The translations under genes and the position numbers were made by a program. A stretch of DNA of 64,000 nucleotides from an uncultured Bacilli bacterium (GTDB lineage Bacteria > Bacillota_I > Bacilli_A > RFN20 > CAG-826): assembly GCA_944327845.1 (NCBI GenBank), contig CALVHN010000001.1, positions 9,149 through 73,148 of the forward strand. The letters run 5' to 3'. Positions 30,356 through 64,000 of the stretch are shown one piece after another (positions within the stretch are counted from its first letter, which is position 1; every line of letters begins with the position of its first letter). The notes beneath the pieces are model-generated. The model was not told where the DNA came from. It ran no database searches and saw only the letters and a list, made by a program, of their open reading frames with translations.

Positions 30356-30379
30356 TTCTGCAAGGCTTTTATAAAAAAA

Positions 30380-30406
30380 AGAAACTAATTTGCTTAGTTT
30401 CTTTTT
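30380..30406. terminator. bidirectional terminator between convergent genes
   Basis: Stem AGAAACTAA / TTAGTTTCT around a TTTGC loop, flanked by A8 upstream and T-tracts downstream. Confidence 0.55.
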
Positions 30407-30428
30407 AATAATTTAATTATTATTTTAA

Positions 30429-41022: not shown

Positions 41023-41037
41023 GTTAAAGGAGAGAGT

Positions 41038-44918: not shown

Positions 44919-44994
44919 GGGTGTTTAGCTCAGCTGGGAGAGCATCTGTTTGACGTACAGAAGGTCACAGGTTCGAGCCCTGTAGCACCCACCA
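44919..44994 (+). tRNA. tRNA-Val (GAC)
   Basis: Cloverleaf: acceptor GGGTGTT/AGCACCC, D-arm GCTCAGCTGGGAGAGC, anticodon stem TCTGT/ACAGA with loop TTGACGT, T-arm GGTTCGAGCC, and an encoded CCA. Confidence 0.8.
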
Positions 44995-45046
44995 GTTTGT
45001 TATTTATAAGGAGAGGATTTATTAAAATCCTTTTTTATTAGAAAAA

Positions 45047-45119
45047 GCACCAATAGTTCAGTGGTAGAACACTAGCTTCCCAAGCTAGTTATGCGGGTTC
45101 GATTCCCGTTTGGTGCTCC
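45047..45119 (+). tRNA. tRNA-Gly (anticodon loop TTCCCAA, read as CCC)
   Basis: Acceptor GCACCAA/TTGGTGC, D-arm TAGTTCAGTGGTAGAAC typical of tRNA-Gly, anticodon stem CTAGC/GCTAG, and T-arm GGGTTCGATTCCC. Confidence 0.7.
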
Positions 45120-45166
45120 GACTTATATTGAAATTAAGACTTAGGGTATATATGACTTAAGTCTTT

Positions 45167-45859
45167 TTATTTGCTATTTTCATCCTTTGAAATAAGTTCT
45201 TCTAAAAGAAGACCAACATTAGAACCAAGGTTATTTTTTAACATTTTTAAATCTTCACAGAAAAATTTCTCGTTTTTTATTGCTGTCTGGATTTTGTCTT
45301 TAAACTTTTCAAAATTTAAATTTGATTTTGTACAATTAAAAAAATCAGATAATTTAATTTCTAAAAATCTTTTTCCTCCTTTTCTAGTTTTTCGATTCTC
45401 TAACATCGCTTTAGGATCTAATGTAAAAATCTTATCATCATGCATTAATAAAAATAGTTCAAATGTTGGGTTAGAAAGACAAATATTATAGTTCTCATTT
45501 TCACATTTATTAAAGAATTCATCTAATTGTTCTTCTTTAAAGTTTTGTGGATCTCTATCTATTATAAAGAAAACTTTATCAATCTTTGGATCATAAGTAA
45601 TTTTATTGTCCTTAATTGATTTTTTAAAATTTTTAAGTTTAAGTAATGGATGGCTTTGTCCATTTTCATCAATCTCATTTTTTATTAACCTTATATCAAT
45701 TAAATAATTTATGTTTAAATAATCAGTATTTGCTTTTATACCTTGAAAATATTTAATTTCAGTAACATCTCCTTCAGTAACAATGAAGTATTTAGACTTT
45801 GGTTCGATATTACCTCTTTTTCTTGTTAAATTAAGATTATTTTCATTTAATTCTCTCAT
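45167..45859 (-). CDS. RloB-like protein (AbiLii-like partner of the AAA ATPase)
   Basis: N-terminal 'KYFIVTEGDVTEIKYF' and C-terminal 'FFIIDRDPQ...CLSNPTFELFLLMH' match the RloB-family pattern (IVCEGEKTE...SNPcFElWlLLH). Translationally coupled to the upstream ATPase. Confidence 0.6.
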   Translation of the reverse strand: MRELNENNLNLTRKRGNIEPKSKYFIVTEGDVTEIKYFQGIKANTDYLNINYLIDIRLIKNEIDENGQSHPLLKLKNFKKSIKDNKITYDPKIDKVFFIIDRDPQNFKEEQLDEFFNKCENENYNICLSNPTFELFLLMHDDKIFTLDPKAMLENRKTRKGGKRFLEIKLSDFFNCTKSNLNFEKFKDKIQTAIKNEKFFCEDLKMLKNNLGSNVGLLLEELISKDENSK

Positions 45860-47277
45860 TAATAATTATCTCCAATTGAAGACGTGACTTCAAAAGTTGG
45901 TATGCCTCCATATCGACCTTCTAAATACGCTTTATCAATTTTTTTATCAAATCTTTCGTTATATTTTTCTAATGAATAAAGGGTAGTTGGACCATTTTTG
46001 TCTCTATCTGTAAACCATATTTCATCTCTTCTTAATAAATTGAAATCTAACAATCTCGATTCATGAGTAGTAACGACTAATTGGCTATTTTCTGTTGCTT
46101 CAAGAAAATATTTAACAAATTCATAAGTTAATTCTGGATGAAAACATCTATCTAATTCATCGATAAAGTATACTTTTTCTCCTTTTGTATTTAAAAGTAC
46201 ACCAATTAAATCAAATAATCTTTGTGTTCCATCTGATTCTTCGATAAATAAATAATCACCATCATTGTTTTTATGGTTTAAAACTACTTTCTTAACATTA
46301 TATTGATTATTGTCTCGATTAATAAAAAACATTTCTCGGTTGATGCGTAAAGAAACTAATGGTTTTTCAGTAATGTTATTTTTAACTCGGTTAATATAAG
46401 CGGTATCTAAATTATTTAACATATTTTTTAAAAATTCTGGTGGAAGATTTAAACTTAATAATTCATCTAAAGAACTATCAACTAAATTACATTGACTTAT
46501 ACCTGTTCCAAATTTTGAAATTAATTCATTAATTTTATTAAGACTTTCTTCAGATAAAAATAGTGGAGAAGAGTCTAAACTTAATTGTGGGAATATTATA
46601 ACTAATGAGTTTAAAAACCAATTATAAATATCTTTAAAAATAGTTACATTGTTGTCGTTATATTCTCGATATAAGGTATCTTTATTTTTATTCATAATTG
46701 TTAAAAACAAAATAGTATCTTGATCTTTCATATCTGAATAATAAACATCTAACCTTTTTAAGATTTCTTTGTTGTTATTGAAATAATTGTTATCTAGATT
46801 AATGTTTTCGTGTAATTTACGATTAAAAATTAATTCTTCTTTATTTGATTTTTTATTAAGTTTATATAGCCATTCAGCTTTAATGCTATTTTTGGATAAC
46901 AAAATGTCAAAGCCGTAGGCATATAAATTATTATTAATTTCAATTTCAAAATCAAAAGAGCTCATTTTATCTTTATTTTCGGTATTTATTCGACAATATA
47001 AATTAGAACAATTTCCTCTAATACCACTTAATATTATATTTTTAGCAAAGGAAACGGCTTTTATTAAATTTGATTTTCCTGAAGAATTAGCTCCATAAAT
47101 TGCAGAAAATTTTAATAGTTTTAAATCATTATTTTTTTTAATGATGTGATTCTCTTTTTTTTTTGTACTTCCTGCAATCATCGAAAGTTCTTGTTCTTCT
47201 TGAAAAGATAAATAGTTTGATACTTTGAAATTGATTAACATTTTTTCTCCTTTAAAATGTGAAATTTTCACATTCAT
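45859..47277 (-). CDS. AAA-family (ABC-like/RloA-AbiLi-like) ATPase
   Basis: Walker A 'SAIYGANSSGKSNLIKA', a Q-loop region, Walker B 'VYFIDELDRCFHPE', and a D-loop/H-motif 'VVTTHESRLLD'. Its stop overlaps the start of the RloB-like gene. Confidence 0.7.
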   Translation of the reverse strand: MNVKISHFKGEKMLINFKVSNYLSFQEEQELSMIAGSTKKKENHIIKKNNDLKLLKFSAIYGANSSGKSNLIKAVSFAKNIILSGIRGNCSNLYCRINTENKDKMSSFDFEIEINNNLYAYGFDILLSKNSIKAEWLYKLNKKSNKEELIFNRKLHENINLDNNYFNNNKEILKRLDVYYSDMKDQDTILFLTIMNKNKDTLYREYNDNNVTIFKDIYNWFLNSLVIIFPQLSLDSSPLFLSEESLNKINELISKFGTGISQCNLVDSSLDELLSLNLPPEFLKNMLNNLDTAYINRVKNNITEKPLVSLRINREMFFINRDNNQYNVKKVVLNHKNNDGDYLFIEESDGTQRLFDLIGVLLNTKGEKVYFIDELDRCFHPELTYEFVKYFLEATENSQLVVTTHESRLLDFNLLRRDEIWFTDRDKNGPTTLYSLEKYNERFDKKIDKAYLEGRYGGIPTFEVTSSIGDNY

Positions 47278-47857
47278 ATATATTAATATATTATTTTTTA
47301 ATTTTTTTCAATATTTAACTATATTTTTATGTGAAAAAATCACATTTATGATATTTTTTAATAAATATCTTTTATTTAATCAAAATTATATTAATAAAGA
47401 TATTTTATAAATGTATCTTGTTGAGATGAATATAAAAAATCTTTTGTAATATTTTTAATAAAAAAACTTGATATCATTTGTTAGATTTTAGATAACAAGT
47501 TTCTAAAATTAGAGATTAATTTATGTCAAATAAAACATCTAGATTAATTATAGGTGTTTAAAGTATTAATTTTTTAATATCAATTAATCTAAAAACTACA
47601 CTAACAATGCAGTTAATAAAATTAATTTGAAGTATTTTTAAATTAAAAAAATAATATAGAAAAAAGGAATCATAAAAAAGTTAATTAATGTTAGTAATTC
47701 AACTTTATTTACTAATTCTTAAAACCTTTTAGAATTTAAGATTCAATAATTATTTTCTTTTTAAATTCAATCTTCTTATTTAAAAAAGTATTTTAAGTTT
47801 AGCGATTTATAACATTTTTAATTAAGCGATTTAAAAATATAAAGTTAAAGAATTGTT

Positions 47858-48695
47858 TTAATTAATTTCCTTTATTTCATCAATAATAGATTTATTTTTC
47901 TTTTTATATATAACATAAAAAGATTGAGTTGCTTCTTTATCTAAAATTGGTAAACAAATACGATTTTTATTTTCTCTCATATATAAAGTAATATTAGTGG
48001 CAAAAGCTGGAATAGAAGAAGCATCAATTATATCTTGAAGTTCATTTTTATTTTGATAGAAAAATCGAGAATTAGGTAATTTTTCTTTAATAATATTTTT
48101 CCAAATTCCAATATCATTTAATACTAAAAAAGATTGTCCATCTAAATCATTAAAAGTTATTCCATCTTTTTTAAAAGAAAGAAAATGATTTAATGGTAAA
48201 GAAGCAAATAATTTTTCTTCCATTATTTTTTCACAAATTATTTTATCATTTATAAAAGGATGATTAATAAAAGCAATATCTTTTGTACCATTTATAATGT
48301 CATTTATGCATTCATTTTCTTCTTCTATACATAAATTAAAGTGGTGTTTAGCTTTATTAAAAATAAAACAATTTGGAAATTTAAAGGTTGGACCGGGAGC
48401 AGTTAATGCAACTTGATAGGTAAGTTCTTTAAGTTTTAATTCTTTTGCTTTTTCTTTTAATCTTTCTTCTAAAGAAATGATGTTTTTAACATATTCAGCA
48501 ATTATTTTTCCATTTTCATTAATAATAATTTTATTAGGAAAACGATCAAATAATTTAAGATCTAATTCATCTTCTAACTTTTGAATTGCTTTAGTAATAG
48601 AAGGTTGAGAAATAGAAAGCTTTTCACTAGCTTTAAGAATAGTACCTTCTTCATAAACTGCTAAAAAAATATTCTAATAAATATGATTCAATCAT
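47858..48695 (-). pseudogene. LysR-family transcriptional regulator, frameshifted in an A7/T7 run 11 codons from the start
   Basis: Minus-strand ATG at 48695 gives 'MIESYLLEYF' and then shifts frame inside the T7 run (plus A7 at 48663-48669). The +1 frame continues as the LysR helix-turn-helix 'LAVYEEGTILKASEKLSISQPSITKAIQKLEDELDLKLFDR' with no stops through to 47858. The ORF track reports only the distal 121 aa. Confidence 0.55.
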
Positions 48696-48801
48696 TTTTA
48701 AGTTCTAGTATTCTTTATAATTATACTATTATGCATAATCAATATAAACATCTTTTCATAAATACTAATACAATTAAGTTATAAGGAGTTTAAAAAAGAA
48801 G

Positions 48802-49269
48802 ATGAAAAATTTAATTGTATACTTTACTTGGTCTAATAATACTAAAAAATTAGTATTAGATATAAATAAAGAATTTAATTTTGATATATTAAGAATAGAT
48901 CGTAAAAAACCATATTCAGAAAACTATAATACTTGTGCTTATGTTGAAGCAAAAGAAGAAGTTTCAAAACATATTTTTCCTGAAATAAGTGATTTTAGCG
49001 TTGATTTTAATGAATATAACAATATTTTACTATTCTTTCCAATATGGTGGTATACATTTCCAATGGTAATTGGAACTTTTATTAAAAAGATAAAAGGTTT
49101 TAAAGGAAATGTATATTATTTTGCAAATAGCTATACCAATGATTACCAATATATGATTAATGTAAGAAGAGATTTGTTAAAAATTGATTCAAGTATCAAT
49201 TTTAAAGAAGGGTTATTTAATAAAAATTTAAAAGATCATATTGATTTTATTAGAAGGGAGGTTAAATAA
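48802..49269 (+). CDS. flavodoxin-family protein (cytoplasmic paralog)
   Basis: 'LIVYFTWSNNTKKL' and 'FFPIWW' parallel the flavodoxin motifs of the downstream lipoprotein ('VVYFSATGNTE', 'GAPVWW'). Confidence 0.45.
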   Translation: MKNLIVYFTWSNNTKKLVLDINKEFNFDILRIDRKKPYSENYNTCAYVEAKEEVSKHIFPEISDFSVDFNEYNNILLFFPIWWYTFPMVIGTFIKKIKGFKGNVYYFANSYTNDYQYMINVRRDLLKIDSSINFKEGLFNKNLKDHIDFIRREVK

Positions 49270-49270
49270 T

Positions 49271-50131
49271 ATGAATACTTTTGAACTTAGTAATGGTGTT
49301 AAAATTCCAGAAAATGGATTTGGCGTTTATCAAGTTAGTAAAGAAGATTGTATAAAAAGTGTTTTATCAGCTTTAAAGGTTGGATATCGACATATCGATA
49401 CTGCTCAATCATATTTTAATGAAAGTGAAGTTGGAGAAGGTATTAAAGAAAGTGGTATTGATAGAAAAGATATCTTTTTAACTACTAAAGTATGGATTGA
49501 TAATTATGGAGAAAATAAAACTTATCAATCGGTTATTGAATCAATGAAAAAGTTAAAAACCGATTACTTAGATTTAATTCTTCTTCATCAACCAGTTAAT
49601 GATTATTATGGAGCGTATCGAGATTTAGAAAAACTTTATAAAGAAGGTAAAGTTAGAGCAATCGGTGTTTCTAATTTTTATAGTGATAGATTAGTTGATT
49701 TATGTTTATTTAGTGAAATTAAACCAATGGTTAATCAAATAGAAGTTAATCCATTCAACCAAAGAGAAGAAGATAAAAAATGGGCAGATAAATATGGAGT
49801 GTTACTTGAAGGATGGGCTCCTTTTGGAGAAGGAAGAAACAATATGTTTACTAATCCTACCCTTTTATCTATTGCTTCTAAACATCGTAAATCAGTTGCT
49901 CAAGTTATTTTACGTTGGCTTTATCAAAGAGGAATCGTATCTTTAGCTAAATCAATTCATGAAGAAAGAATCAAAGAAAATAATGATATTTATGATTTTT
50001 CATTAGATGAAGCTGATTTAGAAAGAATTAGATTATTGAATACAAATCAATCATTATTTTTCTCTCATCAAGATCCAAATATGATTGAATGGTTTGGTAA
50101 TTTAATTATTGAAAGAAGAAACAAAAAATAA
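49271..50131 (+). CDS. aldo/keto reductase
   Basis: AKR signatures 'GYRHIDTAQSYFNE', 'LDLILLHQP', 'IGVSNF'. The ATG at 49271 follows a GGAGG ribosome-binding site. Confidence 0.8.
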   Translation: MNTFELSNGVKIPENGFGVYQVSKEDCIKSVLSALKVGYRHIDTAQSYFNESEVGEGIKESGIDRKDIFLTTKVWIDNYGENKTYQSVIESMKKLKTDYLDLILLHQPVNDYYGAYRDLEKLYKEGKVRAIGVSNFYSDRLVDLCLFSEIKPMVNQIEVNPFNQREEDKKWADKYGVLLEGWAPFGEGRNNMFTNPTLLSIASKHRKSVAQVILRWLYQRGIVSLAKSIHEERIKENNDIYDFSLDEADLERIRLLNTNQSLFFSHQDPNMIEWFGNLIIERRNKK

Positions 50132-50134
50132 TAA

Positions 50135-50758
50135 GTGGAGAAAAATATGAAAAAATTTACATCAATTTTAACATTATGTAGTTTATTTATTTTAGTAGGT
50201 TGTTCTTCAAATATACAAAATAATGATGAAGCTGGGGGAGAACAAGAAACCCCAATATATCAAGATGGTAATGCAATTGTTGTTTATTTTTCAGCTACAG
50301 GTAATACTGAAAATGTTGCTAATTATATTAGTGAACATATTGAAGCTCCATTATATGAACTAGAACCTGTTGATCCATATACATCAGAAGATTTAAATTA
50401 TTCAAATCAAAGTAGTCGAGTTGTTCTTGAACATAATGATCCTAATAGACATGTTGAACTTGAAACTGTTACATTCGAAGGATTTGATGAAGCTAGTTAT
50501 ATCTTTTTAGGAGCACCAGTATGGTGGCAAGAACTTAGTTGGGTTGTTGATGATTTTGTTGAACTAAATGATTTTACAAATAAGACAATTATTCCTTTTG
50601 CAACCTCTTCTTCATCTAGTTATTCAATTGATAATTTAAAGGAATTAGCTCCTGAAGCAACCTGGTTTGATGAAACAAGATTTTCTTCTAGAGTTAGTGA
50701 ATCTCAAGTTATTGAATGGGTTGATAGCTTAGGAATTGATTTTAGAAGTGAAAATTAA
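50135..50758 (+). CDS. flavodoxin-family lipoprotein
   Basis: Lipobox 'FILVGCSS', then flavodoxin motifs 'IVVYFSATGNTENVANYI' and 'GAPVWW'. Confidence 0.6.
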   Translation: MEKNMKKFTSILTLCSLFILVGCSSNIQNNDEAGGEQETPIYQDGNAIVVYFSATGNTENVANYISEHIEAPLYELEPVDPYTSEDLNYSNQSSRVVLEHNDPNRHVELETVTFEGFDEASYIFLGAPVWWQELSWVVDDFVELNDFTNKTIIPFATSSSSSYSIDNLKELAPEATWFDETRFSSRVSESQVIEWVDSLGIDFRSEN

Positions 50759-50769
50759 GAAAGAGATAA

Positions 50770-51700
50770 ATTGAAGTTGTTTCTTTTTAGAAATTCAAAT
50801 ATTACTTCAATTGTTTACCTAATAGTATAAGAGAAATTGGAAATAATGCTTTTTATAATTGTTTTAATTTAAAAAAGTATTAATGCGTTTTCGGGGTATA
50901 ATACTTTAGAAAATATTAATATCCCTGCTAAAGTTAACTTAATTTTAGAAAATTCCTTTAATAATTGTTCTTTAATTAATTTTGATGTTGATAATGATAA
51001 TAGGAATTATTATTCATTAAATGGTTATCTTATTAAAAGAAGTAGTAACACTTTAATTAGAACTAGACAAATGGTGTTATTCCTGAATGAGTTTTAATTA
51101 TTGGGTATAAAGCTTTTATAAATTCAACATTACCTTCAATATCTTTTCTAGTCTAGTTAATGAAATTGCTTCTAATGCCTTTTATTTTAATGATAATTTA
51201 AAAGGTATAAATGTTGATTAAAATAATGAATTAATATAATGTTCCTTTAGGAATTGAAGGATATATTGAATTATTAAATATAAATATAATTTCAAGTTTT
51301 TCTATTTGAGGATGTAGATTAACTTTTATTATCAAGGTATTTTAGAAGAATGGAATTTAATTAAAAAACATTCTACATAGAATATAAATATAAATATTGA
51401 TGTTGAATATTTATATTAAATAAAGGGAGAAGATATAATGAAATTAAATATATTTATCAATTAGATAAAATGATGAATATTATGGAAGTGAAACTTTAAT
51501 AAATGGTTATAATAAGATAGTTAATATATATCTTAATAAAGGTTTAAATATTAAAACAGTAAATCAATTAGTAACATTAGATGTTAAATCTCATTCATAT
51601 TTTTAGATAATGGAGTTACTTATGAACATGGTGTAACTAATCTGTATGCTCACGATGAAAAGATAATGGGATAGTTGTTTGATTGATAAAAATTTACAAA
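50770..51700 (+). pseudogene. decayed BspA-type leucine-rich-repeat surface-protein pseudogene
   Basis: Frame fragments 'LPNSIREIGNNAFYNCFNLKK', 'INIPAKVNLILENSFNNCSLINFDV', and 'YYSLNGYLIKRSSNTLIRT' are typical BspA-like LRR units. Frequent stops in all frames. Confidence 0.4.
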
Positions 51701-51826
51701 AATAGATTATTTTTACAAGGTTTTTAATGAAAATATCGATTCTGTATTTTTATAAATTATTATTTATTTTTTAAATATTTTTTGGTTTATAAATGGTATA
51801 ATATTATAAATTGTTAATTAATTAAT

Positions 51827-51891
51827 AAAAAAGTCCTGAAGCCAGGACATATGTGATGACATAAGTTTTATTTGAACTTGTTATGTTATCT
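51827..51891 (-). ncRNA. tracrRNA of the type II-A system (predicted)
   Basis: Minus-strand RNA 'AGAUAACAUAACAAGUUCAAAUAAAACUUAUGUCAUCACAUAUGUCCUGGCUUCAGGACUUUUUU'. Its 5' part pairs with the CRISPR repeat as a 12-bp upper stem (GUUAUGUUAUCU), a bulge, and a 5-bp lower stem (UUUGA), the same architecture as the S. pyogenes repeat:anti-repeat duplex. A terminal hairpin GTCCTG-AAGC-CAGGAC plus U6 lies at 51827-51848. -35 TTGACT is at 51921-51926 and -10 TATTAT at 51898-51903, with a 17-nt spacer, both on the minus strand. Confidence 0.6.
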
Positions 51892-51931
51892 ATAAAAATA
51901 ATAATTCTTAAAAATAAAGGAGTCAAGTTTT

Positions 51932-54900: not shown

Positions 54901-56260
54901 TTCTCAAATAACAACTACATCTCAAGCAGTTAAAGCAATTAAAGATACAATATTGCAGTTTAAAACTAATAACGAAAATAAAGAGCCTGCTGTAATTTTA
55001 TCGAAGGCTCAAGTTATATCAGATTTTAGAAAGAATCATGATTTATTAAAATGTAGAAAAGCTAATGATTTTCATCATGCTCATGATGCTTATTTAAATT
55101 TGATTGTTGGAAGAGCCGTCAATGAGTATTTTACTAAATATATTGCTAGAAAATCTTATTTAAAGAATTTTGATATTTCTAAAAAATTAACAACAAATAT
55201 TAATAAATTTTTAGATAGTAAAGATTCTAAAGGCAGTGATTTAAATAGACCTAATATATATGATGGAGATTATCTAGTATGGGATTATAAAGATGAGAAA
55301 ACTTTGAATGAAATAAAATATAATATTTATCATAATTTTAATATTTTACATACAGTTAGAACTTATGAAAAAGCTGGTATATTTTCTCAAGTAACAATAT
55401 CTCCAAGCAATCCAAAAGGTTATGCATTATCAATTAAAAATTCAATAGGAAACCCATTATCTAATTCAATTAAATATGGCGGATATTCACAATTATCTTT
55501 TGCATATATGATGCTAATCAAAAACTTAGATAAAAATGATAAATATTTATTAATTATGGTTCCGAGTATTTATAAGGATAAATTGGAAACAAAGGAATTT
55601 AACGATTATGTTTTTGAAGAATATAATGTTAAAAATTTTGATATTATTTTACCCAAACTAAAAATAAACACACTGATTAAAGAAAACGAATCTGAGTTTA
55701 GGATAACAGGCAAAGCAGATGTAAGACTTGCATTAAAAAATAATAAATATGTGTTTTATAACGAGGATTATATTAAAACAATCAAAAATCTTTTTAAAAT
55801 AACAAATAAAATTTCTGAAATTGTTATCAATAAAAAATATAAAAATATTGATGCTTATATTAACGATAATTACAAACAAACATCTTTCGGAATTTATTTT
55901 GATGAAGAATTTATAAAATTAAACGGCGAAACTCTTATTACTAAAAGACAAATTGTAGATTTAAGTAATTTTTTGAAAAAAATTATAAAAAATAAGATAT
56001 ACGATTATGCTAGAAGTAGTTATGATACTATGGATAATTATTTGTCTTATGATAATGATTTATCTTTAATCAAAAATATGCTTATTTTAAAAGAGTGTAT
56101 TAATCGTTTACGAGATTCTTCTTTGACATTTAATCTCAAAGCGTTTGGAAAAGGAGTTATTTCAAGAGAAAGAATGCAATCGAATATTTCAAAGAAAATT
56201 TCAATAATTTATGAATCAACTACAGGATATTATCGAAAAGTTGTCTGGAGCAATGAGTAA
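51932..56260 (+). CDS. cas9: Cas9 (type II-A), 1442 aa
   Basis: RuvC-I 'GLDIGTNSVGW', arginine-rich bridge helix 'RRRCARRKQR', HNH 'DIDHVFPQSKIKDDSFDNLVLTLKENNSDKGD', and RuvC-III 'HHAHDAYL'. Followed by cas1-cas2-csn2 and the array. Confidence 0.95.
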   Translation: MAEKLLLGLDIGTNSVGWCLTDENSKIIKKNGKYLWGIRLFDESKSCKDRRIYRSTRRRCARRKQRLALLQDLFEKPMSKIDPYFFRRLKVSQIKNEDRNDEFNLSEYKNKYLFSDHQEEIEFYNKYPTIYHLRLALINSNEKIDLKYLYLVCAHYIKYRGHFLFEGQDFNVENGASIAQSLNCLLNEDNENNVLFETKDLDEIYDIYSNKKLDKKDKVNKIRDYLFNKVYEVNNDENEKIYLGYIAQLFLDSKVDAKKIYKDKDLDLDNTTISYDSDDFDSIIDELINVSSDYDIDSSFFENIKELKKVYDYLKLKNILGDSIYISEAIVKRFDKHKEDLIKLKNFVKTNFDRETYKKVFINVDDKVCNYPHFVGSSLVKGKKKTISKCKKDDFYKFLETTLNIKRNEIVKEENELSDKEYIEKRMYDGTFLELLRSSQNRFIPYQLNKKELEIILNNQSKYYEFLNESDDYGTVKDKIISLLTFKIPYYVGPLNESSKFAWIKKKQNQKITPWNFNDIVDKDASENEFIKRMANHCSYLFKEETLPKESLLYQEYELLSTLNKLYINNQPITNEIKTFLIDVYKNRGTKISLKDLKRIISDRFGDGNEIILTTSNDKELDENYLSDSLSSFKKFSNIFGKNYVESNVEKIDQIISICTIISDKNRLKDYLIKEFKLNEEDAIKVSKLKFSKFGRLSNKLLCKLKGIDSKTGEVICDKSIIQLMRETNQNLIEIINNKKYGFPAAINLENSEFLKEKYGNKELSDEQKILDFIDKLYISPKLKRPLIQAMKIINELENIMGSKEKGKRSIDEYYIEATRGPDIKAKGKATKSRRQKMLEIYKDAKDFVDEYDSSKAILSNLNGVEDSRLNSKKVFLYFRQLGKDLYTGNPIDFDRLETDYDIDHVFPQSKIKDDSFDNLVLTLKENNSDKGDIYPIPYDSFREKHNWSSKIRNRFFEKLHKNKFISETLYHRLTRLTPLTENELFNFVSSQITTTSQAVKAIKDTILQFKTNNENKEPAVILSKAQVISDFRKNHDLLKCRKANDFHHAHDAYLNLIVGRAVNEYFTKYIARKSYLKNFDISKKLTTNINKFLDSKDSKGSDLNRPNIYDGDYLVWDYKDEKTLNEIKYNIYHNFNILHTVRTYEKAGIFSQVTISPSNPKGYALSIKNSIGNPLSNSIKYGGYSQLSFAYMMLIKNLDKNDKYLLIMVPSIYKDKLETKEFNDYVFEEYNVKNFDIILPKLKINTLIKENESEFRITGKADVRLALKNNKYVFYNEDYIKTIKNLFKITNKISEIVINKKYKNIDAYINDNYKQTSFGIYFDEEFIKLNGETLITKRQIVDLSNFLKKIIKNKIYDYARSSYDTMDNYLSYDNDLSLIKNMLILKECINRLRDSSLTFNLKAFGKGVISRERMQSNISKKISIIYESTTGYYRKVVWSNE

Positions 56261-57132
56261 TGGGTTTTAGAACAGTAGTGGTTAAAAATAGATCTAAATT
56301 AGAAGTTTCATTAAACTATTTAGTTTGCAGAACTGTTGATGGAGAAAAAAGAATTTTACTCGATGAAATTGCTACTGTTTTAATTGAATCAACACAAGTT
56401 GCAGTTACTAGTTCTTTACTTTCAGCTTTGGCTGAAAAAAATATTAATTTAATTATTTGTGATTCTAAACATAATCCAGTTTCACAAATGTTAAGTTTAT
56501 ACGGAAGTTATGATGCTTATCATAAACTATTAAAACAATTATCTTTTAGCGAGGAAAGAAAAGGTAATATTTGGGCTGCAATTATTAATAGAAAAATATT
56601 AAATCAATCTCGTGTATTAGAGATTTCTAATAAAGAAGATAGTTATAAAAAACTACTTGAATATGCTTCAGAAATTGAACGAGGTGATATAACAAATAGA
56701 GAAGGACATGCAGCCAAAGTTTACTTTAATAGTTTATTTGGAAATGAATTTTCGAGAAATCAAGAAAGAAAAGAAAATAAATATCTAGATTACGGTTATT
56801 CAATAATTTTAAGTTCTGTTTCTAGAGCAATAAAGTGTATAGGTTATTATACTGAATTAGGTGTTCATCATATTGGTAAAACGAATCCATTTAATTTATC
56901 TTGCGATTTTGTTGAACCTTTAAGACCTTTGATTGATTATCAAGTTGTTTCAAATAAAGTTAATGATGAAAATTATAAAAATACATTTGTCGATATATTA
57001 AGTTTAAATGTTGACTGTGATAATAAAAATATGCTTTTGGATAATGCTATAAAAACGTATGTTCAGTCATTATTTAATGCTTTAGATAATAATGATATAA
57101 GCAAAATAAAGTGGATTAATTATGAGCTCTAG
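56260..57132 (+). CDS. cas1: Cas1 (type II)
   Basis: 'GFRTVVVKNRSKLEVSLNYLV' N-terminus typical of type-II Cas1. 290 aa. Overlaps the cas9 stop. Confidence 0.9.
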   Translation: MGFRTVVVKNRSKLEVSLNYLVCRTVDGEKRILLDEIATVLIESTQVAVTSSLLSALAEKNINLIICDSKHNPVSQMLSLYGSYDAYHKLLKQLSFSEERKGNIWAAIINRKILNQSRVLEISNKEDSYKKLLEYASEIERGDITNREGHAAKVYFNSLFGNEFSRNQERKENKYLDYGYSIILSSVSRAIKCIGYYTELGVHHIGKTNPFNLSCDFVEPLRPLIDYQVVSNKVNDENYKNTFVDILSLNVDCDNKNMLLDNAIKTYVQSLFNALDNNDISKIKWINYEL

Positions 57133-57442
57133 ATTTATGAGATTAGTATTATTTTTTGATTTACCTGTTATTAAAACTTCTCAAAGAAAAGCTTATACAA
57201 AGTTTGTTAAAGATATAAAGAAAATTGGATTTTATATGTTACAAGAATCTGTATATATTAAGATGTGTTTAGATTCACAAGCTTCAAATTCAACTATAAA
57301 CAAAGTGAAGGACTTAGCGCCAAGCGAAGGTAGTATAATGATTTTAATGGTTACTGAAAAAGAATTTTCAGAAATGAAAGTCGTATGTGGAGAAAGTATA
57401 TCAGATGTTATTACTACTTCAGATAGGGTTGTAGTATTATGA
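57122..57442 (+). CDS. cas2: Cas2
   Basis: 106 aa, 'MRLVLFFDLPVIKTSQRKAYTKFVKDIKKIGFYMLQESVY'. Overlaps cas1. Confidence 0.9.
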   Translation: MSSRFMRLVLFFDLPVIKTSQRKAYTKFVKDIKKIGFYMLQESVYIKMCLDSQASNSTINKVKDLAPSEGSIMILMVTEKEFSEMKVVCGESISDVITTSDRVVVL

Positions 57443-58095
57443 TTTTAAAGTTTAGAGGAATTAATTATTCTTTTGAATATTGTGGTGGAGATATTTCTTT
57501 TTTAGTCATTGAAAGTAGAGAATTTTACTGGAAGCTTTTAAATTCTTTAAATGAATTAAATGAAGATAATATATTTTTAATAGATGATAAAAAGATTGAT
57601 TTAAAAAATGCGATTTTATTTTTTGATAGATTATTCGATTTGGATCCAAATAGTAAAAAAATACTATCCTTAACTTATCAAGATATAAATAAAATGTATT
57701 TAAATGATTCAATCAAAGTTAAAATAAGTGTAGCTAATGAAATACTTTTAGGAATTTTAGATAAGTTAGCTCTTGATGTTGATTTTAAGGCTAGATATGA
57801 AAGTGATTTAACATTGAATGATGTTTTAAATTTATATAAATTTAGATATGAAATTGAATCTAAATCTTTTATTGAAATGTTTCTTCAATATATAAAATCG
57901 TTGATGGTTGTTATGAAATATAAGTATGTTGTGACATTAAATTTATTAGACTTTATTGATAAAAATAATCTAGATTTGCTAAGTAATGAGTTAAAAATAC
58001 TAGGTTTAGACTTAATTGATATTTCAAGACACTCTTATAAATTAGAAAAATATAAAGAAATTCTTATTGATAATGATTTATGCGAAATATCGTAG
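57439..58095 (+). CDS. csn2: Csn2 (type II-A signature protein, short form)
   Basis: 218 aa, placed between cas2 and the array and overlapping cas2 by 4 nt. Confidence 0.8.
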   Translation: MILKFRGINYSFEYCGGDISFLVIESREFYWKLLNSLNELNEDNIFLIDDKKIDLKNAILFFDRLFDLDPNSKKILSLTYQDINKMYLNDSIKVKISVANEILLGILDKLALDVDFKARYESDLTLNDVLNLYKFRYEIESKSFIEMFLQYIKSLMVVMKYKYVVTLNLLDFIDKNNLDLLSNELKILGLDLIDISRHSYKLEKYKEILIDNDLCEIS

Positions 58096-58098
58096 TAA

Positions 58099-58225
58099 AA
58101 TTATATTGATAAAATAAATTTTATCAAAAAATAAAGACGAATTATGTCTTTATTAAAGTTATTGTTTCAAGCCTAAAACAGGTAATTAATTCTAAAATCT
58201 CTGTTATTTGTTTATATAATTTGAG
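58099..58225 (+). promoter_or_regulatory. CRISPR leader
   Basis: AT-rich 127-bp region between the csn2 stop and the first repeat. Confidence 0.5.
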
Positions 58226-59571
58226 GTTTGAGAGTTATGTTATCTACGGTCGGTCTTGAACAACTAGAAGAAGATGTTTTAATGACTTATAGTTTGAGAG
58301 TTATGTTATCTACGGTCGGTCTTGAACTCAAGTTACGGATACACCGTTCCTTCAGTGTTTGAGAGTTATGTTATCTACGGTCGGTCTTGAACTTGAGATT
58401 GAGGTGCTTTTGCAAAATGATTGTTTGAGAGTTATGTTATCTACGGTCGGTCTTGAACATTTATTCTTTTCCGTTCTAGTAATTTTTTGTTTGAGAGTTA
58501 TGTTATCTACGGTCGGTCTTGAACATTATTTGGAAGTTCTGTTGCATCAATATAGTTTGAGAGTTATGTTATCTACGGTCGGTCTTGAACTACTTTAATA
58601 TGTAAAATGTTGTTCATCCGTTTGAGAGTTATGTTATCTACGGTCGGTCTTGAACATAACATCTTTACAAGGATCTTGCACACAGTTTGAGAGTTATGTT
58701 ATCTACGGTCGGTCTTGAACATATCTTGTTCATAGACTTGTCCATCTTCAGTTTGAGAGTTATGTTATCTACGGTCGGTCTTGAACTGTCTTTGATTTTT
58801 AAATCTGTCATAATTGTTTGAGAGTTATGTTATCTACGGTCGGTCTTGAACTAAAACTGGCATCATTTCCTTGATTATATTGTTTGAGAGTTATGTTATC
58901 TACGGTCGGTCTTGAACACTAATTCCTTTGCATTTGGTCCTATTGTGTTTGAGAGTTATGTTATCTACGGTCGGTCTTGAACCCTAGAAAGTATAATAAT
59001 TTTATGGATTAGTTTGAGAGTTATGTTATCTACGGTCGGTCTTGAACTTTTGTTCATTCTTTAGTCCTCCTATTGATGTTTGAGAGTTATGTTATCTACG
59101 GTCGGTCTTGAACTTAAACTGGCGTTTTACCTTGATTATATAGTTTGAGAGTTATGTTATCTACGGTCGGTCTTGAACAGTCTGTTCTTCTAAAATACTT
59201 GCCTGTGTGTTTGAGAGTTATGTTATCTACGGTCGGTCTTGAACAAGAACGATTTGAGGTGCTCACGGTATCTGTTTGAGAGTTATGTTATCTACGGTCG
59301 GTCTTGAACGCATCGTTTGTATCTTGGCTTGTGCTTTTGTTTGAGAGTTATGTTATCTACGGTCGGTCTTGAACATATTTCTACAAGCACATTTACTACA
59401 ATTGGTTTGAGAGTTATGTTATCTACGGTCGGTCTTGAACTTACTTTCTTTGATATAATAATTCTAGGCCGTTTGAGAGTTATGTTATCTACGGTCGGTC
59501 TTGAACCATTATCTAGATTAATCCATTCGCTACCGGTTTGAGAGTTATGTTATCTACGGTCGGTCTTGAAC
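58226..59571 (+). CRISPR. CRISPR array of 21 x 36-bp repeats (GTTTGAGAGTTATGTTATCTACGGTCGGTCTTGAAC) with 20 spacers of 29-30 bp
   Basis: Repeats counted directly at 58226, 58292, 58357, 58423, 58489, 58555, 58620, 58685, 58751, 58816, 58882, 58947, 59012, 59078, 59143, 59209, 59274, 59339, 59405, 59471, and 59536. All repeats are identical, including the last. Confidence 0.97.
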
Positions 59572-59602
59572 TCTTATATATTGTTAATCACGGATATAAA
59601 AT

Positions 59603-61190
59603 GTACATAAGGGGGATGCGGATATTTTTTTAGACTAATATTGATTATAATTTAACATAAATTCTTTTGGGGATAAATATCCTAATCGTCTCTTAATTCG
59701 TTTATTTTTAAACCAGATTAAATATTTTTCTAATTCTGTAATAAAATCATCACATGTTGTATATTTCCAATCATTTGGATAAAAGAACTCATTTTTAATT
59801 GTTCCAAAGAATCCTTCACACATTGAATTGTCTGGAGAACATCCCTTTCTAGACATAGATCTTTTATAACCATATTGTTCCATTAGCTTTATCCAAGAAT
59901 CTATTCTATAATGGAAACCTCTATCGCTATGAATTAGTATCCCGCAATCACCAATAATTTCATGAGCTTCCTTTAACATTTTATTAGTTAATTCAGAATT
60001 AGGAGATTTACCAATTCTCCAAGTAATAGGAGAACCATCGAAGCAATCAATAAGAGGGGACAAATAAACTTTACCATCTTTTAATGCGAATTCAGTTATA
60101 TCTGTAAGAGCTTGTTTATATGGTTTATTCACAATAAATTTTCTATTAACTAAGTTTTCAACTTGTGGACTTATTTCACCTTTATAAGAAGAGTACTTGA
60201 GTTTTGATTTTGGCATATAAACAAATAATTTTTCTTCTTTCATTAACCTAATAATCACTTTTTCAGAAATAACAACTCCATACGATTTTGACAACTCTTG
60301 TTTTACTCTTCTATATCCATAACATTCATAATTATTAAAAAATATTTCTTTAATGATTTTCCTTATAATTAAGTATTTATCAAAGTTTAGTCTTTTTATT
60401 TCATAAAAATATGTTGAACGTTTTAAATGAATTATTTTAAGCAACTCATTGATTTTATATTCTTCTTTTAAGGCGTTGATTATTTGAGTTTTTTCTTTAT
60501 TGCTTAATAGAGAATAATCAACGCCTATTTCTTTTTTTAATATTTCGTTTGCTTTTTTTAGAACTTTATTTTCAAGTTCGAGTTTTAAATGTTCTTTTCG
60601 AAGAGCTATTATTTCTCTTTCAAGTTCTTGTTTTGATTTATCTTTCTTTTTCATAATTGGTTCACCAGTTAGTTCTTTTTGCCACTCATATAAAGTAACT
60701 CTAGTAACATTATACTTATTAGCAACAGTAATTGCTGACGAATCTCTTAAAACTAAATCAACAATTGCTTTTTTCATATTTTCATCGTCCAATATCGTTG
60801 GCTTTTTATGAATTTTATGTTTTCTGGTCCATCTTTTATCTTTTTTTACCCATGATTTTAATGATGAAGGGGATGGATAACCAAATTTTCGGCATGCTTT
60901 AGTTATGTTTTCACCATGACTAAAGTAGTATTCTATTACAGACTCTTGTTCCTCTTTACTCCATTTTGATGATTTATTCCTCTTTCTTGAAATTAAGGGT
61001 TCTCCCTTTTTTCTTTTATCTCTCCAAGATCTTAATGTATAGCGATTAATCCCTAATGCTTTTGCGGTTTTAGATAATTGTCCATCATAGGTATCTAACA
61101 AATTTAATGCTTTTTCAATTTCTTCTATTTTGTGCATACTTGTCCTTTCTATTTAGTCCAAGTTTTTGTCTGCACTCCCTTTTGGTTAAA
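59603..61190 (-). mobile_element. IS3-family insertion sequence (about 1.6 kb) with imperfect terminal inverted repeats
   Basis: A single 500-aa transposase gene. Imperfect ~35-bp inverted termini: left '...AAGGGGGATGCGGATATTTTTTTAGACTAATAT' against right reverse complement '...AAGGGAGTGCAGACAAAAACTTGGACTAAATA'. Boundaries are approximate. Confidence 0.55.
59635..61137 (-). CDS. IS3-family transposase, fused OrfAB form
   Basis: Three N-terminal helix-turn-helix units, a leucine zipper ('LELENKVLKKANEILKKE'), then an rve DDE integrase core ('HSDRGFHY', '...CSPDNSMCEGFFGTIKNEFFY'). Confidence 0.75.
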   Translation of the reverse strand: MHKIEEIEKALNLLDTYDGQLSKTAKALGINRYTLRSWRDKRKKGEPLISRKRNKSSKWSKEEQESVIEYYFSHGENITKACRKFGYPSPSSLKSWVKKDKRWTRKHKIHKKPTILDDENMKKAIVDLVLRDSSAITVANKYNVTRVTLYEWQKELTGEPIMKKKDKSKQELEREIIALRKEHLKLELENKVLKKANEILKKEIGVDYSLLSNKEKTQIINALKEEYKINELLKIIHLKRSTYFYEIKRLNFDKYLIIRKIIKEIFFNNYECYGYRRVKQELSKSYGVVISEKVIIRLMKEEKLFVYMPKSKLKYSSYKGEISPQVENLVNRKFIVNKPYKQALTDITEFALKDGKVYLSPLIDCFDGSPITWRIGKSPNSELTNKMLKEAHEIIGDCGILIHSDRGFHYRIDSWIKLMEQYGYKRSMSRKGCSPDNSMCEGFFGTIKNEFFYPNDWKYTTCDDFITELEKYLIWFKNKRIKRRLGYLSPKEFMLNYNQY

Positions 61191-61370
61191 TATAGAATAC
61201 CTCTATCATTCGTTAAGGATAGAAACTATTAATGAAATATATCAAAGAAATTTTGATGAATAGTAGTTTAAATTTAAAAAATATAGAGAAAAAAATAAAA
61301 TAGCTAAACGAAATGGGGTGATATCATAGATTTTAATAAGTTATTAAAGGATTTTTTTGAAAAAGCTAAG

Positions 61371-61880
61371 GTGAATAATATCGACATATATAATGAAATT
61401 TCATTGCAATTGGAATTAGGAATATTTTTGAGAAGTCAAATTAAAGATTATAAAATCCAATTTGAAAGAAATATCTCTTTCTTTGGCATCACAGGCACTA
61501 CAAAACATGAAATTGACATTGTGATTTTTAATAAGGATAAAAAAGAGAAATATGCTATTGAACTGAAATTTCCTAAAAATGGCCAATATCCTGAAGAAAT
61601 GTATTCTTTCATTGAAGATATTGTTTTTATGGAAGAACTTAAACGCGAAGGTTTTACTAAGACATATACTTTAGTGGTTGTGTCTGATCCGTTGTTTTAT
61701 GAAGGCGGAAGGGTAAAAACAGGAATTTATGCATATTTCAGAGATAGTAAATCAATTACTGGGGAAATATCTAAACCTACTGGTAAGGATAAAGGCATTT
61801 CTCTTTTAAAAGTTAAAAACTCATATACTATCAATTGGAAAGATTGCTATTTAGGCAAGTATTACTTTCTTGAAATTTAA
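61371..61880 (+). CDS. hypothetical protein, possibly PD-(D/E)XK-like
   Basis: 169 aa from a GTG start. 'HEIDIVIFNK...YAIELKFPK' resembles a D...(D/E)xK nuclease core. Weak. Confidence 0.3.
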   Translation: MNNIDIYNEISLQLELGIFLRSQIKDYKIQFERNISFFGITGTTKHEIDIVIFNKDKKEKYAIELKFPKNGQYPEEMYSFIEDIVFMEELKREGFTKTYTLVVVSDPLFYEGGRVKTGIYAYFRDSKSITGEISKPTGKDKGISLLKVKNSYTINWKDCYLGKYYFLEI

Positions 61881-61904
61881 TAATTTAATACGAACTTGTT
61901 TCAT

Positions 61905-62210
61905 TTAAAAGTTGCCGTTGTAAGGGTGTGCAATGTATCAAAAGCCGTAGTATGTAGGCATCTTTATACAACATGTCTGATACAAACTTAGTCGATGACT
62001 AGGGGTGTGCAGACTTTTTTCATTTTTAGACATAAATAGCCACTTTTTAAAATTATGCCGTTGTTATAGTGGAAGTCAAATTCACTAAAATTCATCGAAA
62101 AATCATCATTTTTAAGTTTCACTTTTAAACGGCAGGTGTGCACTATTACACGGCAACCCCTTTTTGTACACCCTTGTACACCCCTAAACACGGCAACTGC
62201 ACACCCTATC
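61905..62210. repeat. GC-richer cluster of iteron-like motifs (GGGTGTGCA/GGGTGTAC and GTTGCCGTG) in both orientations
   Basis: Direct copies at 61924, 62003, and 62135. Inverted copies at 62166, 62175, and 62198. GTTGCCGT at 61911 and 62056, and its inverse CACGGCAAC at 62149 and 62189. Confidence 0.5.
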
Positions 62211-62409
62211 TTTATTAATAATATTGATTGACCATCTGGTTCTAATTGAGCTGGGTGGTCTTTTTTATACCTAAAAATATTTTTTGCTTTTTTTAATTTA
62301 TGCGCCCATCAAAATGTTCCTTAAAGCCTATAACGAGATGATTAGGAGTAAAGACCTTCTTATTACTAATCTTATATAAACAGTAAGCAAAGCTCTTGAT
62401 GTATCATCT

Positions 62410-62781
62410 TTGGATAAGCAAATAGAAGCATTATCTAATGAACTCAATGATATGTATAAAGAGTTTGAACTACTCGTTAAGATGAACGCGACCACGCAGC
62501 AAGATCAAACGATTTGGCGAAAAAAGTATGCAGAACTTGAGAATATTTATAAAAACAAAGAAGCAGAACTTAATTCACTTATTACTAAAAAGAACAAAAT
62601 CAAACTAAAAATTAATAAGTTTAATATCTTCATAAAAACACTTAAAAAAGGTGAACTCATCACTGATTTTGATGAAGAGATATTCAATTTCAATCTAGAG
62701 AAAGCAATAGTTCATAAAGATAAATCAATAACATTTAAGTTCTATTCTGGTTATGAAGTAACAATTAAGTCTGAAGGGTAA
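62410..62781 (+). CDS. hypothetical coiled-coil protein (TTG start); possibly the remnant of a longer gene
   Basis: 123 aa. The same frame upstream is open ('FLLFLIYAPIKMFLKAYNEMIRSKDLLITNLI') but interrupted by TAA at 62377. Confidence 0.3.
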   Translation: MDKQIEALSNELNDMYKEFELLVKMNATTQQDQTIWRKKYAELENIYKNKEAELNSLITKKNKIKLKINKFNIFIKTLKKGELITDFDEEIFNFNLEKAIVHKDKSITFKFYSGYEVTIKSEG

Positions 62782-62930
62782 AGCAAAACCATCATATTTT
62801 GTCAAGACTTAATTTCTAAAATTATTGAAATTTAATTTTTTCGTATGTAGAATAAAGTTGCTAGTTAATAATACCTTGCCTCTCTCGAAAGGCTCGGTGG
62901 GGGTAATATTGAATCATATTATATCCTTCT

Positions 62931-62963
62931 AGGATCTAGGTGAAAGAAACTAGATCCGTTTTT
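62931..62963 (+). terminator. rho-independent terminator
   Basis: Stem GGATCTAG / CTAGATCC around a 10-nt loop, followed by GTTTTTT. Confidence 0.5.
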
Positions 62964-62979
62964 TGTTAGGGGGATAAAA

Positions 62980-64000
62980 ATGATTAGAAAGATTGTGTAT
63001 CTATTTGCTTCCGTTTTTTTAACATTTGGTTTTGCATTGACCAGTTGTGATTCTTTAGGTGAAAATAATTCAACTTCTAACAGTGAATCGACTAGTGAAA
63101 CCAATGATGGCAATTCTGCAACTACTCATGAACATACATATAGTAGTTCATATGAATATGATGATACATATCACTGGCATCCATCAACATGTGGCCATAA
63201 TGTTGTAAGTGATAAAGAAAAACATACGTTTAAAGAAGAAGTGACTGACCCAACCTATGAAAATGGCGGTTACACAACTTATACTTGTTCAACATGTGGA
63301 TATTCATACACTGATGATGAAGTAGACGCCTTACCGATTACCATCACTTGGAAAAATTATGATGGGACAGTATTAGAAGTGGATAATAATGTTCCTTATG
63401 GCACGATGCCTAGTTATGATGGTGAAACACCTACTAAAGAAAGTGATAGCAATTATGATTACATTTTTGCTGGTTGGACTCCTAGTGTTGTTATAGCAAC
63501 ACAACCTACAACATACATTGCTACATTTTCTAATCAAGAAATTACTTATACTGTTGATTTTGATTTAAATGGTGGTACTTCAAATTCATATAAAGGTCCA
63601 ATTGAAGTAAAAACACTTAGTAAAGATATGTTTTTCTTTGATTGCGTTAAAGAAGATTGGTCTTTTAGAGGTTGGGAATATAAAGGAGAAAAAATCTTTG
63701 ATGAAAATGGTAATCAACTAAAAAATGTTACTTTAGTTGACAATATGGTTTTTAAAGCTATTTATTCTCAAACTGTAAAATTATCAATTGTTAGTAATAT
63801 TCCTAGAGCAGGGACTATTACTGGTGAAGGAGAGTATCCATATAATACTTATGTCGATGTATCAGTTAAGCCTAATCAAGGTTATGTATTTATAGGTTGG
63901 TATTATCAAAATACTTTGCTTTCAAATACTGAAGATTATAAATATATGATGTGGGATCAAGATGTTACATTAGAAGCAAGATTCCAATTAGATTCATTTA
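62980..64000 (+). CDS. surface lipoprotein with Listeria-Bacteroides (Flg_new-type) repeat units; truncated at the window end
   Basis: The ATG at 62980 follows a GGGGGA ribosome-binding site. Lipobox 'ALTSC'. Repeated modules such as 'YTVDFDLNGGTSNSYKGP...FRGWEYKGEKIFDENGN' and 'IFAGWTPS' are typical of this beta-repeat. The ORF is open to the end of the window. Confidence 0.55.
   Translation, partial: MIRKIVYLFASVFLTFGFALTSCDSLGENNSTSNSESTSETNDGNSATTHEHTYSSSYEYDDTYHWHPSTCGHNVVSDKEKHTFKEEVTDPTYENGGYTTYTCSTCGYSYTDDEVDALPITITWKNYDGTVLEVDNNVPYGTMPSYDGETPTKESDSNYDYIFAGWTPSVVIATQPTTYIATFSNQEITYTVDFDLNGGTSNSYKGPIEVKTLSKDMFFFDCVKEDWSFRGWEYKGEKIFDENGNQLKNVTLVDNMVFKAIYSQTVKLSIVSNIPRAGTITGEGEYPYNTYVDVSVKPNQGYVFIGWYYQNTLLSNTEDYKYMMWDQDVTLEARFQLDSF

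Follow-up and report, generated by a model that had tools for sequence, protein, structure and literature searches.

An accessory and defence-rich stretch beside two tRNA genes of an uncultured gut Bacilli bacterium as a candidate mosaic of separate modules

We analyzed a window of 64,000 nucleotides (nt) from the genome of an uncultured gut Bacilli organism (contig CALVHN010000001.1), a very AT-rich stretch of DNA with a GC content of ~25%. The subject of this analysis is the segment at 45.1-62.9 kb of the window, which begins 3' of the genes for tRNA-Val and tRNA-Gly and which a first-pass annotation, made from the sequence alone, had described as a tRNA-anchored defence and variable island. 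All of the components listed for that island, from the tRNAs to a coiled-coil open reading frame (ORF), are present where they had been placed or close by. However, with confidence that is somewhat better than even, we view this segment as a mosaic of separate accessory modules that lie 3' of two native tRNAs, and not as one tRNA-integrated element. Specifically, six modules would have been acquired independently of one another: an AbiLi/AbiLii abortive-infection pair, a decaying cassette of flavodoxin and aldo-keto reductase genes controlled by LysR, dead fragments of a leucine-rich repeat (LRR) surface protein, a complete type II-A CRISPR-Cas (clustered regularly interspaced short palindromic repeats) system, an IS3-family element inserted just beyond the trailer end of the CRISPR array, and a 1.6-kb stump from a temperate phage with large serine recombinases. 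The positions of the individual features are listed in Table 1.

What holds of the island description is the richness of this stretch in accessory, defence and decayed genes, its start at the AbiLii stop codon 47 nt past tRNA-Gly, and the presence of a mobile-element remnant at its far end. What does not hold is the evidence expected from integration, which we sought as a repeat, an integrase and a compositional signal. For example, the window contains no direct repeat of the tRNA-Gly 3' end at up to three mismatches, the longest shared words being AT-rich 12-13-mers, and no further copy of the tRNA-Val 3' end is found in the window either. There is also no integrase adjoining the tRNAs and no intact integrase or recombinase anywhere in the stretch, just a 155-codon recombinase fragment at its far end. 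When codon usage and the GC content of third codon positions (GC3) are compared with a background of only the 32 genes in the left 45 kb of the window, the genes at 45.1-58.1 kb, which extend to csn2, are host-like (absolute z<=2.4) and the IS3 element is borderline (z=2.0). The sole compositionally foreign DNA is located at 61.4-62.8 kb, where a 169-amino acid (aa) ORF and the recombinase fragment reside.

Comparison with related strains also places no island boundary at the tRNAs. For this we used conspecific metagenome contigs from several samples and cohorts (these and the contigs of other relatives are labelled with L-numbers), all of which contain the stretch with the same genes in an identical order and with 97-100% identity. 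A sister lineage differs from the window by 2-10% at 34.3-44.02 kb, an interval that covers ORFs without a Pfam match and part of the PAP2 gene, and by 0.0-0.4% from 44.02 kb through NUDIX, the tRNAs and AbiL to cas9 (~54850). This step in divergence sits inside PAP2 at ~44.02 kb, 0.9 kb to the left of tRNA-Val and not at a tRNA, which would make the supposed 'core' flank the hypervariable part. The first-pass annotation had gene content switching away from core genes at the tRNAs; instead, the 9 kb to their left (35.7-43.4 kb) contains five ORFs that have no Pfam match, make up the most divergent stretch between the conspecific lineages and are absent from related species, one of them with a weak SipW-like stretch. 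The divergence of the left flank reflects either a hypervariable surface-gene cluster or a tRNA-containing block that was recently shared between the two lineages.

More distant relatives were compared by way of the NUDIX gene that adjoins the tRNAs, using its 10-kb neighborhoods in some 80 related species. Of the species representatives found, Candidatus Onthovivens merdipullorum is the nearest, with a NUDIX protein that is only 70% identical. The stretch is absent from the NUDIX neighborhood of species at 70% NUDIX identity or below, where no gene of the region occurs within 10 kb of NUDIX other than weak aldo-keto reductase and flavodoxin matches in one contig (L057) and one flavodoxin match in another (L024). 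Relatives with a NUDIX identity of 63-70% have kept only the NUDIX-PAP2 pair; the adjoining tRNA in these species is tRNA-His, tRNA-Val alone, or none, and the genes beyond it are unrelated to those of the window. Since distant relatives keep only NUDIX-PAP2, the locus is a synteny breakpoint on both sides. A search of the relatives' NUDIX neighborhoods for the right-flank chorismate mutase, symporter and U32 peptidase genes of contig L118 was uninformative. The observations that would speak against the tRNA-anchored island of the first-pass annotation, namely the same gene content and order in all related genomes together with no compositional deviation, are made in part: they are seen within the species and up to csn2.

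The far end of the segment is homologous to the ends of intact prophages. It had been annotated as an iteron-like repeat cluster followed by a fragmentary coiled-coil gene; both are present and yet they are not separate features, as the cluster consists of the conserved P and P' arms that flank a phage attachment point and the coiled-coil fragment is the 3' end of a serine recombinase gene from the same prophage. The motifs of this GC-rich cluster (61900-62314) occur nowhere else in the window, lie to either side of the recombination point in both orientations and at irregular intervals, and are accompanied by no initiator gene in the window. In relatives the P arm forms the far end of the element, past the recombinase and cargo genes, and it likewise ends prophages or prophage remnants in contigs L141, L130 and L122-L129, with the tRNA's own terminator coming next. 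The P' module, which includes a terminator-like hairpin at 62230-62260, has copies with 85-90% identity in viral and metagenome contigs that lie directly 3' of the CCA end of tRNA-Leu(CAA), tRNA-Glu(TTC) (two contigs), tRNA-His, tRNA-Ala(GGC) and tRNA-Phe, and a variant copy is found at a distance of 55 nt from tRNA-Arg(CCT). After tRNA-Glu, tRNA-His and tRNA-Phe the P' copy leads into a phage replication block coding for a DUF2800/PD-(D/E)XK exonuclease, AAA_24, a helicase and a primase. Both ends of such an element are seen in a 51.6-kb uncultivated virus genome (UViG 3300044556_000194). At its left end (L133) there is tRNA-Glu, the P' module and then replication genes, and at its right end (L141) there are two serine recombinases (431 and 526 aa), cargo, the P arm and the tRNA terminator, with a 13-nt core, CATATTAGAACGA, common to both junctions.

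The recombinase fragment of the window starts at the equivalent of residue ~372, with the catalytic, recombinase and zinc-ribbon parts deleted, and it is further interrupted by an in-frame TAA at 62377-62379 (GAA to TAA). Database proteins match it at their C-termini with 83-89% aa identity, some of them reaching into the upstream zinc ribbon, and a full-length 526-aa homologue in a viral contig has Resolvase, Recombinase and Zn_ribbon_recom domains followed by a coiled-coil C-terminus. In the window P abuts P' in the arrangement of attP, and P' continues without a gap into recombinase codon ~372. The 61.9-62.8 kb stump is what an internal deletion has left; this deletion would have extended from the P' end into the recombinase gene, and its parent was possibly a tandem lysogen. 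Either deletions in a tandem lysogen or the capture of an excised circle would account for how an attP-type junction came to reside in the chromosome.

The same observations can be arranged as one old accretion island anchored at tRNA-Gly, a history that we consider unlikely while still giving it appreciable weight. Serine-recombinase elements would have integrated repeatedly after the tRNA, each leaving cargo behind, with the LysR-redox cassette, the 169-aa ORF and perhaps CRISPR-Cas as what remains. An older element would end distally in the P arm at 61.9 kb, the stump that follows would belong to a second element in tandem with it, and the proximal junction would have been overwritten later, for example by the arrival of AbiL. 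In keeping with this, at least five different tRNAs have an element of this family integrated exactly at their CCA end, a chromosomal P/P' junction of the attP type is what tandem insertions leave, and a model of this sort has been described for tycheposons (bioRxiv 10.1101/2020.12.28.424599). Several further points weigh against a mosaic. A 3.9-kb stump in L130-L132 contains, in order, tRNA-Leu, P', a 155-codon recombinase stump, the same LysR-flavodoxin-aldo-keto reductase-flavodoxin cassette, the P arm and a host gene, a layout which indicates that elements of this family can carry the redox cassette of the window as cargo. The window cassette likewise lies between a tRNA and a P arm, in keeping with one old accretion island. 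Exchange among equally AT-rich relatives is compatible with host-like codon usage, and the ~10-fold lower divergence of the region relative to the left flank between the two conspecific lineages could reflect a recent transfer of the whole block. In addition, the relatives available include no close sister species between 99% and 70% NUDIX identity and thus do not show an empty site. On the other hand, there is neither a P' module nor an att-like sequence at tRNA-Gly or tRNA-Val, where a search for a second P or P' copy gave only AT-rich noise. Read by eye, tRNA-Gly(CCC) has no complete encoded CCA and is followed by a terminator-like hairpin of its own (45130-45165), which looks as if it could end transcription of the tRNA as well as of the convergent AbiL operon. 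Furthermore, the four-gene cassettes of the window and L130-L132 are 52-78% identical in aa sequence, as compared to 88% identity of the stump DNA, and these unequal levels indicate that the cassette and the stump have had different histories. Finally, no relative of Cas9 or AbiLi was found among IMG/VR viral contigs, and the block is fixed in all sampled strains.

It is considerably less probable that the segment is an ordinary, vertically inherited neighborhood in which the genes merely look accessory and only the IS3 element and the phage stump are foreign. The host-like composition and the fixed gene order within the species would be expected from such a neighborhood, and it would also accommodate the aldo-keto reductase and flavodoxin genes near NUDIX in one distant relative (L057) and the tRNA-Gly(CCC) that adjoins NUDIX in two contigs (L027, L028). 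However, outside of the weak exceptions in L057 and L024, the genes of the region are missing near NUDIX in the related species, that side is occupied by entirely different genes in the nearest relatives, and AbiL and CRISPR-Cas are typical mobile defence modules. A separate concern is whether the stump is physically linked to the array. The IS3 element that lies between them is probably present in multiple copies, and the linkage across it is uncertain. Contigs from other assemblies break in the array or the insertion sequence: same-lineage short-read contigs L002 and L003 end at ~59398 (a computed position), inside the array, and L118 starts at 60452, inside IS3. Moreover, L012 exits IS3 into different DNA, coding for PRiA4_ORF3, NmrA and a radical SAM protein, and its IS3 copy is 1.8% divergent with a 1-nt indel near codon 9, even though it lies beside 11 kb that is virtually identical to the window (1 difference). 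The terminal inverted repeats of IS3 (~59612 and ~61181) are imperfect and no convincing target duplication was found. Given these observations, 61.2-64 kb might not adjoin the array, the join through a multi-copy IS3 being an assembly artefact or true only in some strains. We regard this as improbable, though less so than simple vertical inheritance: the junction between IS3 and the 169-aa ORF is 100% identical in the independent assemblies L001 and L118, the CRISPR-IS3 junction is common to L012 and L013, and nothing directly contradicts the array-to-stump join of the window.

As an island, the segment is of a routine and known kind, an accessory and defence-rich stretch beside tRNAs in an uncultured gut bacterium. 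Like defence islands and variable regions found 3' of tRNAs, it has two defence systems, an insertion sequence, pseudogenes and a prophage stump within 18 kb; unlike tRNA-proximal defence islands, it lacks a tRNA-side integrase, a tRNA-derived repeat, a broad compositional signal and presence/absence polymorphism in the sampled strains. Tycheposons are tRNA-proximal accretion islands in which a minority of the elements have large serine recombinases (bioRxiv 10.1101/2020.12.28.424599). As in the family described here, their elements carry replication modules and cargo, occur at several tRNA genes and leave degraded integrases and remnants that pile up beside the tRNA. The differences are that tycheposons mostly have tyrosine recombinases and leave repeats made of partial tRNA copies, whereas the insertion point here is right after the CCA end so that no partial tRNA is duplicated, and that the hosts are unrelated (marine cyanobacteria versus gut Bacilli). 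The locus also provides a caution, since gene content alone pointed to a tRNA-anchored island and yet the repeat, integrase, composition and polymorphism tests mostly fail.

The more interesting by-product, and one worth following up, is the prophage family that appears to have its landing sites at the 3' end of many different tRNA genes. Temperate phages of the phiC31, Bxb1, A118 and SPbeta type likewise have a large serine integrase near one prophage end. In contrast to these, the present family has two tandem recombinases and inserts 3' of many tRNA genes and not inside one protein-coding gene. Its long repeat-bearing arms (~65 and ~350 bp) are also not needed by simple serine-integrase att sites. 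When P' was folded against shuffled controls, the plus strand gave z=-4.27 and the minus strand z=-1.26; a covariation test was uninformative as all predicted pairs are invariant in the six sequences. Rfam gave no match at gathering score for 61850-62420, only chance-level ones (E>=1), and blastn of 61181-64000 against plasmid and phage databases gave no match. A minus-strand ORF across P' (61988-62191) was considered as a gene and ruled out by 1-nt indels that occur inside it among homologues. The P' module may encode a small phage RNA that is transcribed from the tRNA promoter, act as an origin of replication, or provide accessory sites for recombination.

With low confidence, we propose that the stump represents an undescribed gut-Bacilli family of serine-recombinase prophages that insert after the CCA of many tRNAs, that P' is a small RNA or an origin, that the stumps are mobile in trans, and that the 18 kb is an accretion island. 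If this is true, then P' would be a strand-asymmetrically foldable, terminator-ended module into which the tRNA promoter would read. Stumps of 0.8-4 kb that have both att arms and are movable in trans by a helper phage would also explain why relatives are seen only as C-terminal fragments. If confirmed, the target choice of this family would be of practical interest for integrase engineering, and the family would provide a way in which tRNA-proximal islands of AT-rich Bacilli could be built. Among database relatives of the recombinase there are >100 entries, all of which are short C-terminal fragments of 78-232 aa. Two database ORFs (P0141 and P0147) fuse an unrelated N-terminus, phage helix-turn-helix or small terminase-like by eye, to the recombinase C-terminus at NLIEAV. 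This position is close to the stop codon of the window copy and may be a recurrent breakpoint.

Table 1. Features of the segment and its borders, in window coordinates. Domain calls are from Pfam, NCBIfam and PADLOC, and tRNAs are from ARAGORN and Rfam.
Feature	Position	Strand	Basis or remark
tRNA-Val(GAC)	44919-44994	+	ARAGORN; Rfam 65 bits
tRNA-Gly(CCC)	45047-45119	+	ARAGORN, Rfam
AbiLii (RloB-like), second gene of the pair	45167-45859	-	Pfam RloB 1.4e-25; PADLOC AbiLii 2.3e-18
AbiLi (AAA_21 ATPase)	45859-47277	-	Pfam AAA_21 2.6e-28; PADLOC AbiLi 3.3e-79
LysR-family regulator gene, frameshifted	47858-48695	-	Alignment to the intact 278-aa allele of L108
Flavodoxin_4	48802-49269	+	Pfam
Aldo/keto reductase	49241-50131	+	Pfam
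Flavodoxin_4 with N-terminal lipoprotein-type signal (by eye)	50135-50758	+	Pfam
BspA-type LRR_5 surface-protein remnants, frameshifted	50794-51218	+	Six-frame translation; pieces in three frames
Putative tracrRNA	~51825-51895 (ends approximate)	-	13-nt same-sense repeat match at 51880-51892
cas9 (1442 aa)	51932-56260	+	Pfam
cas9-cas1-cas2-csn2 operon	51932-58095	+	Pfam; PADLOC Csn2 3.6e-31
CRISPR array	58226-59571	+	21 identical 36-nt repeats, 20 spacers of 29-30 nt; leader on csn2 side
IS3-family insertion sequence	~59612-61181	-	Pfam/NCBIfam; ~40 nt beyond the last CRISPR repeat
IS3 transposase, 500 aa, DDE (rve)	59635-61137	-	NF033516 2.8e-100, 336 bits against a cut-off of 160
169-aa ORF	61371-61880	+	Family without a Pfam model; GC3 z=4.3
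P arm of prophage attachment region	61900-61964	+	Ends ...GTAGTATGTAGGCAT
P' module, ~350-bp conserved non-coding unit	61965-62313	+	Motifs GGGTGTGCA, ACGGCAAC
Serine recombinase 3' end, last 155 codons of 526 aa	62314-62781	+	GC3 z=5.9
Orphan terminator-like hairpin before lipoprotein gene	62929-62965	+	GGATCTAG...CTAGATCC and a T-run; weak, sequence only
998-aa lipoprotein, LRR_5 and Flg_new domains, first gene outside the region	62980-64000 (gene start)	+	Host-like codon usage

The remaining modules largely bear out the first-pass annotation, which had listed an AbiL-like module, a frameshifted LysR gene, a small redox operon, an LRR surface-protein pseudogene, type II-A CRISPR-Cas and an IS3 element. 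The AbiL-like module is a good AbiLi/AbiLii pair by both PADLOC and Pfam, with the two genes that define AbiL overlapping by 1 nt. Their order, an AAA_21 ATPase followed by an RloB-like protein, is the same as in AbiL of the Lactococcus plasmid pND861; in contrast to that plasmid system, the pair here resides on the chromosome of an uncultured gut Bacilli organism and is recognized from its genes, which would presumably confer defence.

The redox operon (flavodoxin, aldo-keto reductase, flavodoxin) is divergent from the LysR gene. The LysR frameshift is caused by one additional T in a T-run (48663-48669) at codon ~9, relative to an otherwise identical 278-aa allele in the sister lineage; this homopolymer change could instead be a sequencing error. 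The sister lineage has an intact LysR gene together with a first flavodoxin gene in which the start ATG is changed to ATA, whereas this start codon (48802-48804) and gene are intact in the window. The decay of these two genes is thus reciprocal between the window strain and the sister lineage. The adjacent LRR remnants give a Pfam LRR_5 match of 8e-15 when stitched together across frames, and they are 99.8-100% conserved in all conspecific contigs. The possibility that this pseudogene is a duplicate of the intact lipoprotein gene at the right border was ruled out, with a protein identity of merely 35-45%. Between the recombinase fragment and that lipoprotein gene, a possible degenerate P-arm end, CGTATGTAGAAT, at ~62842-62853 is as weak a call as the hairpin beside it (Table 1).

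The CRISPR-Cas system is complete, with cas9, cas1, cas2, csn2, a 21-repeat array and a putative tracrRNA that together make it type II-A by Pfam and PADLOC. The putative tracrRNA, as read from the nucleotide letters, is composed of an anti-repeat TAGATAACATAAC, a nexus-like element CAAGTTCAAATAA and a hairpin GTCCTGGCTTCAGGAC followed by a T-run. The layout is that of Streptococcus-type II-A systems, in which an antisense tracrRNA lies ahead of cas9 and the cas9-cas1-cas2-csn2 genes are followed by the leader and the array, with 36-nt repeats and 29-30-nt spacers in both. It differs from these systems by the length of its Cas9 (1442 aa) and by the IS3 element that abuts the trailer end. Sister strains lack spacers 1-4, 8 and 9, and trailer-end spacers are common to all strains. 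This pattern is as expected for ongoing acquisition at the leader, and the system appears to be still acquiring spacers. Exact protospacers for spacers 2 and 16 were not found in IMG/VR. Spacers 10 (58852-58881) and 14 (59114-59142) are ~85% identical to each other and look like two acquisitions from variants of one target.

The IS3 transposase, which matches its NCBIfam model well above the cut-off (Table 1), is a single fused ORF without a frameshift and with extra N-terminal helix-turn-helix domains, rather than two ORFs linked by a frameshift. An exact look-up of its sequence found no record. In the DNA past IS3 in L012 (strain BRZ_KT), the radical SAM gene (15294-16196) has strongly atypical codon usage (GC3 0.44, z=12).

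The 169-aa ORF had been considered a possible nuclease. The ORF is present and belongs to an uncharacterized family of >870 members of about 180 aa, with D49, E64 and K66 invariant in 26 homologues. Its predicted structure (pLDDT, the predicted local distance difference test, of 93) has NucS, Cas4 SSO0001, AF1548 and RecU as best PDB matches, a resemblance to PD-(D/E)XK nucleases that is weak (E>=8e-3, TM~0.3). Pfam, NCBIfam and PADLOC gave nothing above threshold for this ORF, only a sub-threshold match to Pfam DUF234 (E 0.0088). The protein probably has a PD-(D/E)XK fold. The ORF, placed beside the P arm where intact relatives carry cargo genes, is itself likely to be cargo of the prophage stump.

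To the left of the segment, a hairpin with a T-run 3' of tRNA-Val looks terminator-like by eye, and minus-strand PAP2 and NUDIX genes separate the tRNAs from the five ORFs without a Pfam match. Two of these ORFs (38644-43392) are adjacent and paralogue-sized (792 and 784 aa) and are absent from related species, and the weak stretch in the second of them, at residues 109-290, is of the SipW signal-peptidase type. The left 19 kb of the window contains clear core genes, including topA, trmFO/gid, cdsA, dxr, rseP and polC, and is followed by redox genes, glycerol kinase and addAB. At 29240-32111 a gene for a DUF5677 protein adjoins addAB, and beside it on the opposite strand is a gene for a 560-aa uridine-kinase-like protein with a weak N-terminal STAND-NTPase match. 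This couple may be another defence-type pair, outside of the segment described here.

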